From the sequence record NC_018087.3: a DNA stretch of 64,000 bases, one strand, 5' to 3'. The notes under the pieces were generated by a model. That model had not been told where the DNA came from and did not search any database. It was given only the letters and a program-made list of their open reading frames with translations. Below, piece by piece: positions 493 to 45,660 of this stretch. The translations under genes were made by a program, and so were the position numbers. This stretch comes from Acinetobacter phage ZZ1. The first letter of the stretch is position 1. Each line of letters starts with the position of its first letter.

Positions 493-807
493 TCATATTT
501 CCTCAACAAAAGACCAGGCTGCGTGATATACGCTAGCGCCTTTAGTATCATTCATACAAACCATATCAACAGGACATACTACGCGATAAATCTTTGGTTC
601 ACCGCCAAATTGATTACATGCACGTCCGGCATAAACTTTAGCCAAACCAAGATCAGCAGTAAAGAACACGCGATCAAGATTTTTATTACGACCTTTTTCT
701 GATAAAGTATCAGATACAATAGGAGGTAACAACATGTTTTCAATTCCACACGCACTTGAAGAGCCGTGATAAAACACTTTAACTTCAGCAGGAAATAAAT
801 TGACCAT
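493..807 (-). CDS. hypothetical protein (104 aa)
   Basis: ORF in the minus-strand early-gene array; no recognisable motif. Confidence 0.35.
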   Translation of the reverse strand: MVNLFPAEVKVFYHGSSSACGIENMLLPPIVSDTLSEKGRNKNLDRVFFTADLGLAKVYAGRACNQFGGEPKIYRVVCPVDMVCMNDTKGASVYHAAWSFVEEI

Positions 808-11306: not shown

Positions 11307-11351
11307 AATAAAATTCTCAAATTTGTATCTTGAATATAATATTACTAAAAA

Positions 11352-11377
11352 TCCAGGACTATGTACATAGTCCTGGA
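11352..11377. terminator. palindromic bidirectional terminator (TATGTACATA-core family)
   Basis: TCCAGGACTATGTACATAGTCCTGGA flanked by A/T runs, downstream of 43B. Confidence 0.55.
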
Positions 11378-11386
11378 TAATTTATT

Positions 11387-41033: not shown

Positions 41034-41108
41034 GGCGGCGTCGCCAAGGACTCGAACCCTGGATTGCGGATTTGGAATCCACCGTGTTTCCAACTACACT
41101 AACGACCC
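41034..41108 (-). tRNA. tRNA-Trp (anticodon CCA)
   Basis: Manual fold: D-stem GTGT/ACAC, anticodon stem GTGGA/TCCGC, loop TTCCAAA, T-arm CAGGG-TTCGAGT-CCTTG. Acceptor has one G.G mismatch and CCA is not exactly encoded. Confidence 0.55.
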
Positions 41109-41347
41109 TTAAACTGCAAATGTGCCAGCATGAAATAATCTCAAACACAATATAAAACATGTTGTCAACGCAGGAAAGCTTAATGGCATGTCACGATATA
41201 AATTGACAAGTGCATGCAAGCTGTTCTTTTTTAATTATATAGTAAGCACCAACAAATTGTGAAACGGTGGAATGAGTGAGGCAATTTGCTTTACTCAAGT
41301 ACCTATACTTACTATAGTGTATATTCGTCTTACGAGAAATATACAAA

Positions 41348-41425
41348 TTGGTCTCCGTAGAATGATTTGAACATTCGACACCTGCGTCCCAAACGCAGTG
41401 CTCTACCAGACTGAGCTATACGGAG
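41348..41425 (-). tRNA. tRNA-Pro (anticodon UGG)
   Basis: Manual fold: acceptor CTCCGTA/TACGGAG, anticodon loop TTTGGGA (G37), T-arm GAATG-TTCAAAT-CATTC, encoded CCA. Confidence 0.7.
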
Positions 41426-41431
41426 TTAAAA

Positions 41432-41518
41432 TGGTGTGCCCCCTGGGATTCGAACCCAGATAGCGTTAGCGCCGGAGTTACAGTCCGGTGAGTATGGCCA
41501 ATAACTCGAACGAGACAC
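41432..41518 (-). tRNA. tRNA-Tyr (anticodon GUA), type II with long variable arm
   Basis: Acceptor GTGTCTC/GGGGCAC (G.U wobbles), anticodon arm CCGGA-CTGTAAC-TCCGG, variable arm GCG-CTAA-CGC, T-arm CTGGG-TTCGAAT-CCCAG, CCA. Confidence 0.7.
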
Positions 41519-41638
41519 ATAAATTGCCGTGAAATGTCCTTTTATACTTTCGAGCATTTCACCACTCAATAAGTAAATCTTGAAGCTTTGTTTGTTTTAC
41601 AAGAGGAAACTTCGTCCTGCTTATCAGGCAATTAAATC

Positions 41639-41733
41639 TGGCGGAAGGTGAGGGGGTCGAACCCTCAAGGCGTGTCACCACGCTCGACTGATTTCAAGTC
41701 AGCTGCCGTCGCCAGCTTTCGGCTTGACCTTCC
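41639..41733 (-). tRNA. tRNA-Ser (anticodon UGA), type II
   Basis: Acceptor GGAAGGT/ACCTTCC, anticodon loop CTTGAAA, long variable arm GCGTG-GTGA-CACGC, T-arm GAGGG-TTCGACC-CCCTC, G73, CCA. Confidence 0.7.
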
Positions 41734-41800
41734 AATAAAATATTGACGACCTAAGAACCTTTACACCAATAATGGAGACTTAGGACCCTTTACATCAATT

Positions 41801-41879
41801 TGGCTCCCACCGTGAGATTCGAACTCACCTAACCTCGGATTAACAGTCCGGTCCATGCACCTAGCTCGGATTCGTGGGA
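41801..41879 (-). tRNA. tRNA-Asn (anticodon GUU)
   Basis: Anticodon loop CUGUUAA as in E. coli tRNA-Asn, T-arm GTGAG-TTCGAAT-CTCAC, acceptor with one mismatch, CCA. Confidence 0.65.
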
Positions 41880-41886
41880 ATAATTC

Positions 41887-41962
41887 TGGTGCCGACACGA
41901 GGATTTGAACCCCGGACCCTCTGATTACAAAACAGACGCTCTACCAACTGAGCTATGACGGC
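41887..41962 (-). tRNA. tRNA-Thr (anticodon UGU)
   Basis: D-arm GCTC-AGTTGGTA-GAGC, anticodon loop TTTGTAA, T-arm CGGGG-TTCAAAT-CCTCG, acceptor GCCGTCA/TGTCGGC (one U.U), CCA. Confidence 0.7.
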
Positions 41963-42058
41963 AAATCATTAATCAAATGAACCCGGGATACAATTTGAAT
42001 TTTGCGAGGATAAGTCGCTCATCTACCGGTATCGCCAAGATCATTTGATTAATGATCT
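41962..42058. repeat. 17-bp perfect inverted repeat flanking a 60-nt structured insert, abutting the 5' end of tRNA-Thr
   Basis: AATCATTAATCAAATGA (41962-41978) and its exact reverse complement TCATTTGATTAATGATC (42041-42058). The insert contains an anticodon-arm-like hairpin GCGA-CTTATCC-TCGC. Confidence 0.5.
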
Positions 42059-42364
42059 TATACATTTATTTATACAACCCAAAAGGGCACCAGTATGACC
42101 ACTTGCCGAGAACACAGTGAGTTAAAACTCTTTATGACAAGATTAATAAAATTTGATCGCTAAAACTTTGAACTTTACGAAATAAAAACTTTAATCTTTG
42201 AGATTTAAACTTTAAGCTTTCGCAATTTTGGGATAATGTACAGTCTTCGCGCATGGGAATCTGTATCACCATCAAAGTTCTATAACCTTAGAAGTTAGCC
42301 GATTTTAGGATGCATCGGCTAGAACCCTCTACAGTTTTTGATCATACTGATTTTATTTAAAACA

Positions 42365-42934
42365 TTAATCTAAAACAATTAATGGATTATTTTCTGTTAA
42401 AATTGCGTCGAATTCAAGCTCGAAGAAATCTATTGTCTTTTTAATTTCATCGAGTTCTTCTTGTATGTCCAGAATTGTAGGTTTTTCTCGTTTTTCCAAC
42501 AATGTCTTGAACTCGGCGTCATCTGATGGAGTTTTGAGCATCTTAGCATCAAACTCACGTTCAACTTGAACAAACAGTGAACGATTTGCAGCTAAATCTT
42601 TTTGCATTTTAGCATATAAGGCTTTAAGCTGAGGTAAAACATGAGTACGATATGTTAACGCATCATTAATACTCATTTCCATGTTGCCAATTTGAATTGT
42701 ATGTTTTGCATTGGCTCGATTAATTGCACAGCGCAATTTAAATTCTTCAGCTAAGCGATCTTTAAATGATTGAATATTACGACGACTTCCTTCAGAAAAT
42801 TCTTTAACCGGTCGTGCTGTTGAAATTTCAACTCCATTACGGAATACACCAGAAAATGCTGCATCACGAAGATCTGAAGTGAATGATACTTTATTGCGTT
42901 TTAACGTAACTAAACCACGAGCGATTGTAGTCAT
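42365..42934 (-). CDS. hypothetical protein (189 aa) embedded in the tRNA island
   Basis: ORF between the two tRNA sub-clusters. Confidence 0.4.
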   Translation of the reverse strand: MTTIARGLVTLKRNKVSFTSDLRDAAFSGVFRNGVEISTARPVKEFSEGSRRNIQSFKDRLAEEFKLRCAINRANAKHTIQIGNMEMSINDALTYRTHVLPQLKALYAKMQKDLAANRSLFVQVEREFDAKMLKTPSDDAEFKTLLEKREKPTILDIQEELDEIKKTIDFFELEFDAILTENNPLIVLD

Positions 42935-43155
42935 AATAAATTCCTCTATTCAAAATAAACTTTATGTGATCATTATATCATTAAATTATGAAAAGCAACT
43001 TAATTACTAATCATGTCCAACTTTTTTATTACATAATATACAAGTAGATTCTTTAGAATAATAACCCATATCATTTAACATTCTAGCTGTATATGAATCA
43101 TTATCTTTAGTTACTTGATAATAATGTTTGCAAAATAACTGTTTGAAGAACTTAA

Positions 43156-43398
43156 TCATTTAAGACGCACCTTGGCTTCAAAAACAAATCTGTATTCATC
43201 ATCCGTCAAAACTTTGGCTCGTTCATAAGAAGTTGCCATTCTTAAAACGGCACCAGTATATGATACAATTGCAAAAACACAATTTTTAGAATCTTTATTG
43301 GCAATTTCACCAACTTTAAATCTAAATTTTTTATACGTATATTTATTATCATACGTACATAAAAATTGTGCTAAATTTTTAGAAAATGTAAATCTCAT
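43156..43398 (-). CDS. hypothetical protein (80 aa) embedded in the tRNA island
   Basis: ORF. Confidence 0.35.
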   Translation of the reverse strand: MRFTFSKNLAQFLCTYDNKYTYKKFRFKVGEIANKDSKNCVFAIVSYTGAVLRMATSYERAKVLTDDEYRFVFEAKVRLK

Positions 43399-43599
43399 TA
43401 ATTTACCATCTTCATTTAAAATTCCATAAATTGAACGGCTTGATGTTTTATCAATGCACTTGCGACAAATCTATTTATTCATGGTAAACCTCATCAATTA
43501 AGGGTTAAAAGAAATAAAGGAGGTTTTTCATTCAAGGACCTCATACCTTTGCCAATGAGAGGGCATGCTAAGCAGTGGTCACATCTCAGGCTATGAATT

Positions 43600-43675
43600 T
43601 GGTGGATACCGGGAGTGCTTGCACCTCCAATCAACTACGTTGTCCGCTGCTTTACTATTTAAGCTAACAGTACCC
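43600..43675 (-). ncRNA. atypical tRNA-like RNA gene (acceptor stem + CCA, non-canonical arms)
   Basis: Minus strand GGGTACT...GGTATCC-A-CCA forms a 7-bp acceptor stem (with G.U) and a D-arm-like GCTT-AAATAGTA-AAGC. It lies 1 nt 3' of tRNA-Cys, but the T-loop is GTGCAAGCA and no clear anticodon arm exists. Confidence 0.3.
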
Positions 43676-43676
43676 A

Positions 43677-43753
43677 TGGAGACGCCGGATGGATTCGAAC
43701 CCTCATCGACGCGGATTTGCAATCCGCCGCATAACCAATTCTGCCACGACGTC
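43677..43753 (-). tRNA. tRNA-Cys (anticodon GCA)
   Basis: Acceptor GACGTCG/CGGCGTC, anticodon arm GCGGA-TTGCAAA-TCCGC, T-loop TTCGAAT (one mismatch in T-stem), U73, CCA. Confidence 0.6.
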
Positions 43754-43944
43754 ATAAAATTTATTAAATGCAAGCAACTTCCTCAGTTTCCCCTGGCTAC
43801 CACACCAGTGCATTAAAGTTTCATTTATCTAGCATGACAGTCCCTGCAGTGACCAACATATTCAATAAAATTATTCAAAACTACATTTTCGGGAGCGACC
43901 CTATTCACTTCGTTTTTATATGCTATACTTGCTCTAATAAATCT

Positions 43945-44021
<77 letters not shown>

Positions 44022-44026
44022 AAAAA

Positions 44027-44102
44027 TGGTCCGCCTGACAGGATTCGAACCTGTGTGAGTCGCAATAGAACTACGATGCCTAATCCATTCGGCCACAGAC
44101 GG
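44027..44102 (-). tRNA. tRNA-Arg (anticodon UCU)
   Basis: Acceptor CCGTCTG/CAGGCGG, anticodon arm TCGTA-GTTCTAT-TGCGA, T-arm ACAGG-TTCGAAT-CCTGT, CCA. T4 also carries tRNA-Arg(UCU). Confidence 0.65.
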
Positions 44103-44107
44103 ATGTT

Positions 44108-44188
44108 TGGTGGAAAAGACAAGAATTGCACTTGCATATCCAGGAGTTATTAAGTTCCCGGGCGTTCACTTTGTTTCGCCACTTTCCC
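44108..44188 (-). ncRNA. atypical tRNA-like gene with expanded (10-nt) anticodon loop ACUUAAUAAC and T-loop TGCAATT
   Basis: Acceptor GGGAAAG/CTTTTCC, A73, CCA; D-arm GGCG-loop-CGCC; anticodon stem CGGGA/TCCTG around a 10-nt loop; T-arm GCAAG-TGCAATT-CTTGT. Packed 5-7 nt from the flanking tRNAs like a real tRNA gene. Confidence 0.35.
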
Positions 44189-44195
44189 ATAAATT

Positions 44196-44269
44196 TGGTC
44201 GTTCAGGACGGATTCGAACCGTCACACAGAGTTTTAGGGACTCCTGGTCTACCGTTAACCTACTGAACG
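44196..44269 (-). tRNA. tRNA with anticodon CUA (amber/UAG-reading; suppressor-type), identity unknown
   Basis: Perfect acceptor CGTTCAG/CTGAACG, A73, CCA; D-arm GGTT-AACGGTA-GACC; anticodon stem GGAGT/ACTCT (one G.U) with loop CCCUAAA, so 34-36 = CUA; T-arm GACGG-TTCGAAT-CCGTC. C33 instead of U33 is unusual. Confidence 0.5.
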
Positions 44270-44272
44270 AAA

Positions 44273-44291
44273 CCCGCTAAAATAAAGCGGG
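44273..44291 (-). terminator. hairpin (terminator or processing signal) immediately 5' of the CUA tRNA
   Basis: CCCGCT-aaaataa-AGCGGG; on the minus strand it is followed by TTT and then tRNA nucleotide 1. Confidence 0.45.
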
Positions 44292-44440
44292 AGTTGATCA
44301 AGTTACGCATTATCAAGAGGCTATTGATCCATGAAAATAAAATTACTTGACCATCCTGGCAGATTTGTTGGAATTCCACCAACTATCTCCATCATATCTA
44401 AGATGGCATTCTAATCTTGAACTATAATCCACTAGGTCAA

Positions 44441-44576
44441 AGTAACTTTTAAATGATAACGAATATTGATGGGACTCGAACCACATATCAACCGGGTTTA
44501 ACAGGCCGGTTATGCTCCAGTATCAGGCGCAAGCTTAACCAATTAGCTACTAATTCATTATCATTTAAAAGTTACC
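44441..44576 (-). pseudogene. degenerate type-II tRNA-like element flanked by 18-bp perfect inverted repeat (23-bp stem overall)
   Basis: GTAACTTTTAAATGATAA (44441-44458) and its exact reverse complement (44559-44576). The enclosed ~95 nt has a canonical D-arm (AGCT-AATTGGTTA-AGCT), an Asn-like CTGTTAA hairpin and a TTCGAGT T-loop, but the stems do not close into a cloverleaf. Confidence 0.35.
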
Positions 44577-44601
44577 TCTTAATTGAGGTAACTGAGGTAA
44601 T

Positions 44602-45204: not shown

Positions 45205-45660
45205 TTATTTTTCAGGAGACCAATCTAAATCTAAATCCTCAACATATTCATGCGTGGCGCCGATTGAAATTTTAAACTCCAATTTAGGCTTTGCCATCGC
45301 CCCAATATCATATGCTAATGTAATATGAGGTTGATAATCCGGAAAATCATAAGTTGCACCCAATGCTTGTGCATATGCAAAACGAGAGTGCAAATAAGGT
45401 GAATCTAGTAATAACACAAGGGCTCGTTTGCCGTTATGTTCAAATATTTCAAAGTCTTTAGCATATGCAATAATACCAAGATTGTCCATTGGTTTAAATG
45501 GAACAAACACACGAGAATAGCATATTGTAGAATGTAATTTATCGCGAGGTGTTGCATCAAATAACTTTAATTTATCTTGTAAATCGCATAAAGCATCTAA
45601 TGTGTCATTACTAAATTTGACCGCAGCATATGTACCACGGTCAAGTTGACTAAATTTCAT
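45205..45660 (-). CDS. 57B: gp57B-position protein (151 aa)
   Basis: Synteny (57B-57A-1-3-2-4) and size (T4 57B is 152 aa). Confidence 0.4.
   Translation of the reverse strand: MKFSQLDRGTYAAVKFSNDTLDALCDLQDKLKLFDATPRDKLHSTICYSRVFVPFKPMDNLGIIAYAKDFEIFEHNGKRALVLLLDSPYLHSRFAYAQALGATYDFPDYQPHITLAYDIGAMAKPKLEFKISIGATHEYVEDLDLDWSPEK

Follow-up and report, generated by a model that had tools for sequence, protein, structure and literature searches.

A covarying RNA helix encloses a tRNA-like domain at the head of the tRNA gene array in Acinetobacter T4-like phages

The window considered here, a 64,000-nucleotide (nt) stretch of Acinetobacter phage ZZ1 (NC_018087.3), carries a tRNA-like core enclosed by a long inverted repeat, the clamp, directly upstream of the tRNA genes on the minus strand. 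Comparisons among relatives show that the clamp is a conserved RNA helix under selection, and all the Acinetobacter T4-like phages examined have it at this junction. Although shaped like a class II tRNA and related to a tRNA-Tyr of phage Acj9, the core is not a tRNA. Aligned between two genera, it is shown to be almost invariant and better conserved than the real tRNAs of the same clusters. The element is real and selected, with a well-supported architecture and an inferred mechanism, and it is probably a processed small RNA, not a dead gene. In the reading favoured here, held with confidence just short of even, the clamp acts as a double-strand-specific (RNase III-type) processing stem at the junction of an mRNA and the tRNA array and would release a non-decoding, tRNA-like small RNA. 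The parts of the element and related features are listed in Table 1.

Table 1. Positions of the element, its parts and related features (window coordinates unless another record is named)
Feature	Position	Strand	Description
T1, terminator-like hairpin	44571..44592	minus	GUUACCUC-AAUUAA-GAGGUAAC, then UUUU; directly after the late gene for the 85-amino-acid (aa) protein
Clamp 5' arm	44553..44575	minus	GUAACUUUUAAAUGAUAAUGAAU
5' junction	44550-44552	minus	UAG; acceptor-like link, core to clamp
U8-A9 and D-arm	44533..44549	minus	UA GCUA AUUGGUU AAGC; UAGCUAAUUGGUUAAGCU
Hairpin A, anticodon-arm position	44513..44531	minus	6 base pairs (bp), UGCGCC/GGAGCA, G.A mismatch, loop UGAUACU
Hairpin B, long-variable-arm position	44490..44511	minus	AACCGG/CCGGUU, 10-nt loop CCUGUUAAAC with Asn-like CUGUUAA
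T-arm	44469..44486	minus	AUG(U)GG UUCGAGU CCCAU, 5-bp stem, bulged U; includes GGTTCGAGTCC
3' junction	44465..44468	minus	CAAU; acceptor-like link, core to clamp
Clamp 3' arm	44442..44464	minus	AUUCGUUAUCAUUUAAAAGUUAC, then UUU
Second degenerate tRNA-like sequence	44345..44441	minus	In the 170-nt spacer, closed by UUGACC/GGUCAA
First canonical downstream tRNA	44196..44269	minus	Anticodon CUA
Clamped tRNA-Thr	L002 (Morttis) 688-788; L003 (Minot) 581-681		

The clamp and its conservation

An inverted-repeat search recovered two arms of 23 nt, 96% complementary and enclosing 88 nt, as the top inverted repeat of the whole window. With spacers of up to 150 nt, the longest perfect inverted repeat is 18 nt here, compared with 11-14 nt in 60 composition-preserving random sequences, and the fold of the element has a z-score of -5.5 relative to shuffles. 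The exact 18-mer GTAACTTTTAAATGATAA occurs in the window only at 44442-44459 (plus strand) and 44558-44575 (minus strand), a single pair of arms with no further copy. An earlier note on this DNA had described an 18-bp perfect inverted repeat, which these results confirm, and had extended it to a perfect 23-bp duplex. The 23-bp stem stands, with 18 pairs perfect, but position 19 is not a Watson-Crick pair. At that position, the plus strand has a C.A mismatch and the minus-strand RNA a U.G wobble, which indicates that the minus strand, on which the tRNA genes also lie, is the one to be read. The UUU after the 3' arm can pair with GAG, lengthening the helix to 26 bp. With 23 bp, one U.G pair and this possible extension, the clamp has the form of an RNase III stem (at least about 20 bp of near-perfect double-stranded RNA flanking a structured RNA).

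The same slot was read in seven groups of Acinetobacter T4-like phages, anchored on the gene for the 85-aa protein (Table 2). The layout is common to all groups: T1 is followed by a second helix, the clamp, whose 5' arm (GUAACUUUU...) starts inside the 3' half of T1. In the relatives, the A-rich 3' arm (...AAAAGUUAC) ends 4-7 nt ahead of the first tRNA, compared with 170 nt in the window.

Table 2. Clamp length and enclosed sequence in the groups compared
Group	Clamp	Enclosed sequence
Zedzedvirus (window, Henu6, W16)	23 bp	88-nt tRNA-like core
Hadassahvirus (Morttis, Minot, PhT2, Porter, AbTZA1, AB-Navy71)	20-21 bp	~86-87-nt core homologous to that of the window
Acj9	16 bp	93-nt class II "tRNA-Tyr(GUA)", called by ARAGORN
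Acj61	20 bp	Different tRNA-like sequence, 84 nt
Phage 133	16 bp	54-nt remnant; acceptor stem and UU/UU flanks as in Acj9
Lazarusvirus	17-20 bp	12-nt loop only
AB1I1M-1	17 bp	11-nt loop only

In the 11 distinct variants, 175 of the 176 cells at the first 16 helix positions pair, and positions 3, 4, 10 and 12-18 each show two to four Watson-Crick pair types. These variants, which span the seven groups, hold at least 10 compensatory pair changes in the clamp. When the eight cargo-bearing variants are aligned by a covariance model, 96.5% of cells pair, against 30-45% when the partners are slid, and 13 pairs have changes on both sides, a number reached by none of 500 shuffles. The G.U wobbles of the clamp fall on the tRNA-sense strand, and the covariance model gives the sense strand 147 bits and the antisense strand 36. 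In phage 133, the clamp change GUAAC to GUGGC is compensated in the 3' arm (GUUAC to GCCAC). The cargo-less clamps of Lazarusvirus and AB1I1M-1 also differ from each other by compensatory changes. By this comparison, the clamp does not depend on the cargo that it encloses.

The earlier note had also suggested a mobile insertion, that is, a tRNA-derived element resembling a miniature inverted-repeat transposable element (MITE), whose terminal inverted repeats would here be 18-23 bp long. Among the relatives, the site does occur both filled and empty, and the apex of a second hairpin in the window differs from that of Henu6, a 98% relative. However, the inverted repeat is retained at the empty sites, the very sites that the earlier note had proposed to look for, and its arms co-vary instead of being conserved. 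The upstream terminator accounts for the outer 9 bp, target-site duplications are lacking, and the element is present in a single copy in the 64 kb, with none elsewhere in the phage, metagenome and genome collections. Repeats that are kept at empty sites, evolve by compensation and occur once are not the terminal repeats of a mobile element. Insertion of this type is scarcely credible and is refuted as far as sequence data allow.

Wider searches placed the element, so far, only in Acinetobacter T4-like phages. A pattern scan and a protein-anchored scan of IMG/VR returned known isolates only, and a protein-anchored scan of metagenomes yielded no further relatives. The clamp pattern gave 38 metagenome matches, all by chance and mostly in gut-bacterial coding sequence, none with T1 or with a helix longer than 15 bp. 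A scan of GTDB genomes for the D-arm 18-mer gave nine chance matches, none in a tRNA, and the tRNA-Tyr-like sequence of Acj9 has no other homologue among phage records. Literature searches turned up neither a paper about the element nor any mapping of transcripts for these phages.

A promoter was sought within or just before the element, and no conserved sigma-70, MotA-box or TATAAATA motif was found. A coding role was considered for a 50-aa open reading frame on the plus strand and for the mini-frame AUGAUAAUGAAUUAG, which follows a Shine-Dalgarno-like GAGG, neither of which is conserved. This role was rejected because 2- and 3-nt indels at the junctions shift the frame and the AUG is missing in Hadassahvirus.

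The tRNA-like core

The D-arm, the CUGUUAA hairpin and the UUCGAGU T-loop reported in the earlier note are all present on the minus strand. Its statement that the core cannot close into a cloverleaf does not hold. A class II cloverleaf forms if one U is allowed to bulge from the T-stem and one G.A mismatch is accepted in the stem at the anticodon position; for the Morttis homologue, this is the minimum-free-energy fold, and covariation is in its favour. The D-arm follows the tRNA consensus apart from U21 and an A13.A22 mismatch. In hairpin A, the loop has G33, 'AUA' and C37, and its counterpart in Acj9 has an AUGAUG/CAUCAU stem and an AUGUACA loop (GUA, Tyr). The acceptor-like link to the clamp is imperfect, consisting of G7-C66, a conserved A6.A67 mismatch and a bulge, followed by the 23-bp clamp; in Hadassahvirus, it has tandem U.U/A.A mismatches.

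The helices of the window core and of the Acj9 tRNA-Tyr correspond pair for pair, with nearly identical D-arms. All six pairs of hairpin A differ between the two and still pair, three pairs of the T-stem are changed with pairing kept, and one pair of the variable arm goes from C-G to G.U. Within Hadassahvirus, PhT2 has a compensated change from U-A to C-G in the T-stem and a change from C-G to U.G in the variable arm. The elements that form the elbow of a tRNA, the D-loop GG (AUUGGUU) and the T-loop UUCGAGU, are present and are invariant in all homologues but for one A14-to-U change in AB-Navy71.

The features needed for decoding are a different matter. The window core has neither a 7-bp acceptor stem nor a free 3' end, and the loop at the anticodon position has G33 and C37 in place of U33 and a purine at 37. 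An RNA built in this way cannot, judging from these features, be aminoacylated or read codons. ARAGORN called no tRNA at 44442-44575, and an Rfam scan of 5 kb at E-values up to 10 did not match the core. The scoring against a tRNA model proposed in the earlier note was run as a narrow scan with the Rfam tRNA family (RF00005), in which the core reached 16.5 bits against a cut-off of 29 bits, and only through an alternative alignment; the Acj9 version scored 20.3 bits. That alignment, with GAUACUG/CAAUAUU as the acceptor and hairpin B as an Asn anticodon arm, was rejected because its acceptor pairing is absent in Hadassahvirus.

These results bear on the proposal that the element is the precursor of a genuine if unusual Tyr isoacceptor, which would decode once the clamp had been removed. 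The Acj9 homologue is called as tRNA-Tyr(GUA), with a 7-bp acceptor stem and a UU/UU internal loop before the clamp; U35, A36 and C37 are common to Acj9 and the window, and a real tRNA-Thr is clamped in relatives. Against this stand the broken acceptor stem in both genera, G33, C37, the bulged T-stem and the sub-threshold Rfam score through a non-conserved alignment, with even Acj9 falling short. A decoding role is very improbable for the window core.

Conservation of the core

All 86 aligned positions of the core are identical between the window and Morttis/Minot, that is, between Zedzedvirus and Hadassahvirus. In the same comparison, tRNA-Met is 87%, tRNA(CUA) 74%, tRNA-Ser 87% and the 85-aa protein 67% identical. 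At a tRNA-like divergence of 13%, 86 nt would stay unchanged with a probability of about 6e-6. On both sides, the identical block stops precisely where the core joins the clamp, and beyond that point the differences are compensated or are small indels.

That the core is a decaying tRNA-Tyr pseudogene, functionless itself and trapped in a conserved hairpin, is weighed against this pattern. Acj9 has a more canonical tRNA-Tyr in the same clamp, phage 133 a truncated one and two lineages none; other degenerate tRNA-like sequences lie nearby in the window, and no tRNA finder calls the core. The earlier note had held that an intact tRNA in relatives would imply simple decay. Acj9 does supply a tRNA that ARAGORN can call, but the inference to decay fails: the absence of any substitution, when true tRNAs differ by 13-26% between the genera, argues against it. 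The few changes in PhT2 are compensatory or preserve a wobble, and the elbow motifs are intact. The pseudogene is therefore quite unlikely. The invariance extends to both hairpin loops and suggests that much of the surface of the core touches a macromolecule.

The identity of the core and its palindromic flanks could also arise from events at the DNA level, either gene conversion by Seg-type homing endonucleases at tRNA T-arms or a palindrome that forms a cruciform or binds a protein. The recognition consensus of SegB contains GGTTCRANTCC (PMC2330249), and the core carries GGTTCGAGTCC. A Seg-like gene is present in Henu6 but not in the window, a SegB-like gene adjoins tRNA-Thr in Morttis, and the window and Henu6 carry the T1 loop in opposite orientations. 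However, the real tRNAs of the cluster carry the same motif and have not been homogenised, being only 74-87% identical. In addition, the identity block stops at a structural boundary, the adjoining stem differs by compensated changes, and RNA is indicated both by the pattern of G.U pairs and by the unequal model scores of the two strands. An explanation at the level of DNA is improbable.

Proposed processing of the clamp and its alternatives

T1 lies 10-17 nt past the stop codon of the 85-aa gene and has the features of an intrinsic terminator, namely a GC-containing hairpin immediately behind a gene, with a U-run after it. The Morttis and Minot records label it a terminator. A simple terminator scan omitted it because T1 has four U and the scan requires five. 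The first 5 nt and the U-run of the clamp 5' arm double as the 3' half and the U-tract of T1, and the two hairpins are mutually exclusive because they have these five nucleotides and the U-tract in common. The folding energies are -12.7 kcal/mol for T1 alone and -26.5 kcal/mol for the clamp alone, and the full-length RNA is predicted to fold into the clamp, not T1. In phage 133, the GUGGC of the clamp also fits the 5' arm of T1 (GUUAC to GCUAC), with one compensating change and one U.G wobble. A second copy of UUACCUC occurs at 44594-44600. The 6-nt loop of T1 (44579-44584) is AAUUAA in the window and UUAAUU in Henu6, W16 and other genera, a difference that looks like a small hairpin-mediated inversion.

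A comparable helix surrounds a bona fide tRNA in relatives. The tRNA-Thr of Hadassahvirus (Rfam, 53.2 bits) has an acceptor stem that continues into a 13-bp leader/trailer helix to form a 20-bp stem, which starts a few nucleotides after a TATAAATA late-promoter motif. Some nuclease must remove this extension to mature the tRNA. Most other tRNAs of these clusters lack such acceptor extensions; in T4, nothing comparable to the clamp lies ahead of tRNA-Gln or surrounds any tRNA. E. coli RNase III is reported to be involved in the maturation of T4 tRNAs (review PMC4810235, citing McClain 1979 and Gurevitz & Apirion 1983).

The mutual exclusion of clamp and T1, the clamped tRNA-Thr and the reported role of RNase III in T4 tRNA maturation are the grounds on which the clamp is taken to be a processing site. 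Transcripts that read through T1 would refold from it into the more stable clamp, which an RNase III-type double-strand-specific endonuclease would cut. The cut would separate the mRNA from the tRNA precursor, T1 would re-form as a protective 3' end of the mRNA, and a short leader would remain for RNase P on the downstream tRNA. The tRNA-like domain would be freed on a helical stub as a small stable RNA and could act in trans because it is shaped like a tRNA, for instance by engaging an enzyme that binds tRNA or a nuclease that targets it. An RNase III substrate was one of the readings of the earlier note, and given the 23-26-bp RNA helix, its compensatory changes and the clamped tRNA-Thr, it is the best-supported mechanism, with cleavage itself presumed.

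Several points weigh against the processing reading. Cleavage, stability of the product and even read-through of T1 are all inferred. The 16-17-bp clamps of Acj9, 133 and Lazarusvirus lie towards the lower limit of length for RNase III unless they are stacked on neighbouring helices. Some lineages can dispense with the tRNA-like RNA, as is seen in Lazarusvirus and AB1I1M-1, which have no cargo. In the cores of Porter and AB-Navy71, there is one change each that preserves neither a pair nor a conserved tRNA position. The core contains a Seg-type recognition motif and Seg-type genes are polymorphic in the cluster, so gene conversion is possible. Lastly, the comparison comprises about eight distinct cargo sequences from closely related isolates, to which IMG/VR, the metagenomes and GTDB added none.

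The main rival is that the clamp is functional but uncleaved, acting as a fail-safe second terminator, as a hairpin shielding either the upstream mRNA at its end or the tRNA precursor at its leader, or as a switch between T1 and the clamp, with the core merely tolerated. The clamp is conserved with a loop of only 11-12 nt in Lazarusvirus and AB1I1M-1, and it overlaps T1 and is followed by two to four U. In addition, the window hairpin at 41965-42056 and the tRNA-Thr clamp of Hadassahvirus both start just past TATAAATA, where a 5' hairpin would protect the primary transcript. However, the alternative pairing partner lies downstream of T1 and hence has no influence on termination at T1. The short U-run and AU-rich base of the stem would make a poor terminator, and the terminator scan makes no call. 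An uncleaved hairpin also leaves the identity of the core at 86 of 86 positions unexplained, and the 13-bp extension on a real tRNA-Thr needs removal by a nuclease. An uncleaved clamp is thus possible, though unlikely.

The processing reading leaves room for several functions of the released RNA. A regulatory tRNA mimic, the third reading of the earlier note, is compatible with the extreme conservation of the core. A broader and rather doubtful proposal sees in the clamp a conserved cargo slot that stands first in the array and serves to express and excise interchangeable tRNA-shaped RNAs, with the invariant cargo of the window being a trans-acting tRNA mimic. The cargo would then be Tyr-like in Acj9, Zedzedvirus and Hadassahvirus, of another type in Acj61, truncated in 133 and missing in Lazarusvirus. 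Such a mimic could draw off, as a decoy or sponge, a tRNA-binding enzyme or an immune nuclease of the host that targets tRNA; it would not replace a tRNA. A phage tRNA-Tyr is known to rescue infection from retron-Eco7 PtuAB, whose effector degrades tRNA-Tyr (PMC11555353).

Comparison with known RNAs

Nearest in kind are the T4 stable RNAs rnaC and rnaD (species 1 and 2). Species 1 RNA is reportedly a substrate of RNase III, according to Paddock et al. in the 1970s, and Pragai and Apirion are said to have described in 1981 an RNase III cut before maturation of T4 tRNA-Gln; neither is used as evidence here. Like the element, rnaC and rnaD are small non-tRNA RNAs inside a T4-like tRNA gene cluster, on the tRNA strand. 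The fold of rnaC includes a canonical T-arm, a terminal acceptor-like stem and long hairpins. The element shares the location of a T4-type stable RNA and may accumulate likewise. In contrast, rnaC and rnaD lie at the 3' end of their cluster and the element at the 5' end, and the long duplex of rnaC is internal, whereas that of the element closes both ends. Homology searches with blastn and nhmmer found only T-loop-sized matches to rnaC and rnaD, and a covariance model of the element (R1) scored 13.5 bits on rnaC (E 0.3). The function of RNAC and RNAD is not known (PMC9697503).

The clamp can also be set beside the RNase III processing stems that enclose stable RNAs. The stems flanking 16S and 23S rRNA, the sites of the T7 early region and the processing of T4 tRNA precursors are examples. 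The likeness lies in a leader/trailer helix of about 20-26 bp around a structured RNA, kept by compensatory change, and in its position at a boundary within a polycistronic transcript, where in the present case cleavage is presumed. Unlike those stems, the clamp re-uses the 3' half and the U-tract of an upstream terminator-like hairpin, and its cargo is an 88-nt tRNA-like domain here and a tRNA or nothing in relatives.

The Acj9 tRNA-Tyr(GUA) shares with the core the slot, the clamp, the 6-bp stem at the anticodon position, the long variable arm and the T-arm. The core differs from it in a variable-arm loop of 10 nt instead of 4, in lacking a closed 7-bp acceptor stem, and in G33, C37 and the bulged T-stem. 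A further likeness is to YrlA-type Y RNAs. YrlA is reportedly, in work by Chen et al. (2014) and Wang et al. (2018), a tRNA-like module on a long end-to-end helix without a free CCA. Both carry a tRNA-like module on a terminal helix, which in the element replaces the acceptor end. The YrlA model RF02553 did not match the element even at E-values up to 10, and the only sequences that it did match are true tRNAs, which reached 24-26 bits where 69 are required.

Genomic setting

The window belongs to a T4-like phage of Acinetobacter baumannii, genus Zedzedvirus, and Henu6 and W16 are about 98% identical to it. The tRNA genes lie at 41037-44269 on the minus strand, eight called by ARAGORN and one more by Rfam. 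By position, the element is the 5'-most RNA element of the tRNA region, which the earlier note had taken to be a transcription unit. It is preceded by genes for a deoxynucleoside monophosphate kinase, gp57A, gp57B (Acb1-like), a small membrane protein and the 85-aa protein. The gp57B homologue (45205-45660, minus strand), three genes upstream of the element, matches Pfam Acb1 (E 1e-49), which acts against the cyclic-oligonucleotide-based anti-phage signalling system (anti-CBASS).

The 85-aa protein gene is a late gene with a TATAAATA late-promoter motif. Its product was considered as a double-stranded-RNA-binding partner of the element and rejected, as it has no Pfam match and belongs to a PHROG family without known function. 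A sequence search of the PDB found no relative, and an AlphaFold model with a mean predicted local distance difference test score (pLDDT) of 55, a low confidence, was not used. Some remote homologues are far longer (1048 and 1834 aa) and repeat the domain 8-9 times, which suggests a structural late protein.

The tRNA with the CUA anticodon begins only 6-7 nt past the clamp in Hadassahvirus, Lazarusvirus and Acj9. This amber-reading tRNA, labelled tRNA-Pyl or TERM in the records, adjoins the clamp in nearly all these phages. TAG is the stop codon of only one of 53 long open reading frames in the window. A small RF-1-domain protein is encoded within the tRNA cluster of relatives (L002 1725-1961) and had no homologue in the one window reading frame compared with it. 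In the window, a terminator-like hairpin, CCCGC-UUUAUUUUA-GCGGG-UUU (44273-44291, minus strand), abuts the 5' end of tRNA(CUA) and is found only in the Zedzedvirus spacer. The second degenerate tRNA-like sequence of that spacer is homologous to the clamp cargo of Acj61 (L016 748-831), with compensatory changes in the T-stem.

Another tRNA-like gene, at 44111-44188 (minus strand), is missed by ARAGORN and scores 34.4 bits with Rfam. Its CCA end is encoded, its T-loop is atypical and its anticodon loop (ACUUAAUAAC) is 10 nt long. Henu6 lacks this gene; the Hadassahvirus version, 74-77% conserved, overlaps small annotated reading frames. In Henu6, a GIY-YIG Seg-like homing endonuclease gene lies between tRNA-Met and tRNA-Arg (L001 2827-3489); at the corresponding place in the window (44021-44027), there is none and the two tRNAs are 5 nt apart. 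The tRNA array is thus mosaic even between 98%-identical relatives.

The second long hairpin of the window (41965-42056, minus strand) has 16-nt perfect arms with inner pairing, encloses 60 nt and has a z-score of -6.3. It starts a few nucleotides after a TATAAATA motif (42067-42074) and ends 2 nt ahead of tRNA-Thr. Its apex is about 35 nt shorter and different in Henu6, and in W16 it is the same as in the window. Elsewhere in the window, a perfect 28-bp palindrome, ATCCAGGACTATGTACATAGTCCTGGAT, occurs at 11351-11378.

Implications

Phage tRNA clusters are usually read as helpers for codon usage and, more recently, as spares against tRNA-cleaving defences. Here, a tRNA-derived RNA without decoding features outdoes the real tRNAs in conservation and is carried on a dedicated, covarying helix. 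The leader-trailer clamps around bona fide tRNAs imply that the maturation of phage tRNAs includes a step specific for double-stranded RNA. Nature already provides filled, swapped and empty variants of the clamp for comparison, in phages that are under development for therapy and whose host is A. baumannii. Should the RNA prove to be excised and stable, RNAs of the T4 RNAC/RNAD type, which have gone unexplained for about 50 years, would have evolved independently a second time.

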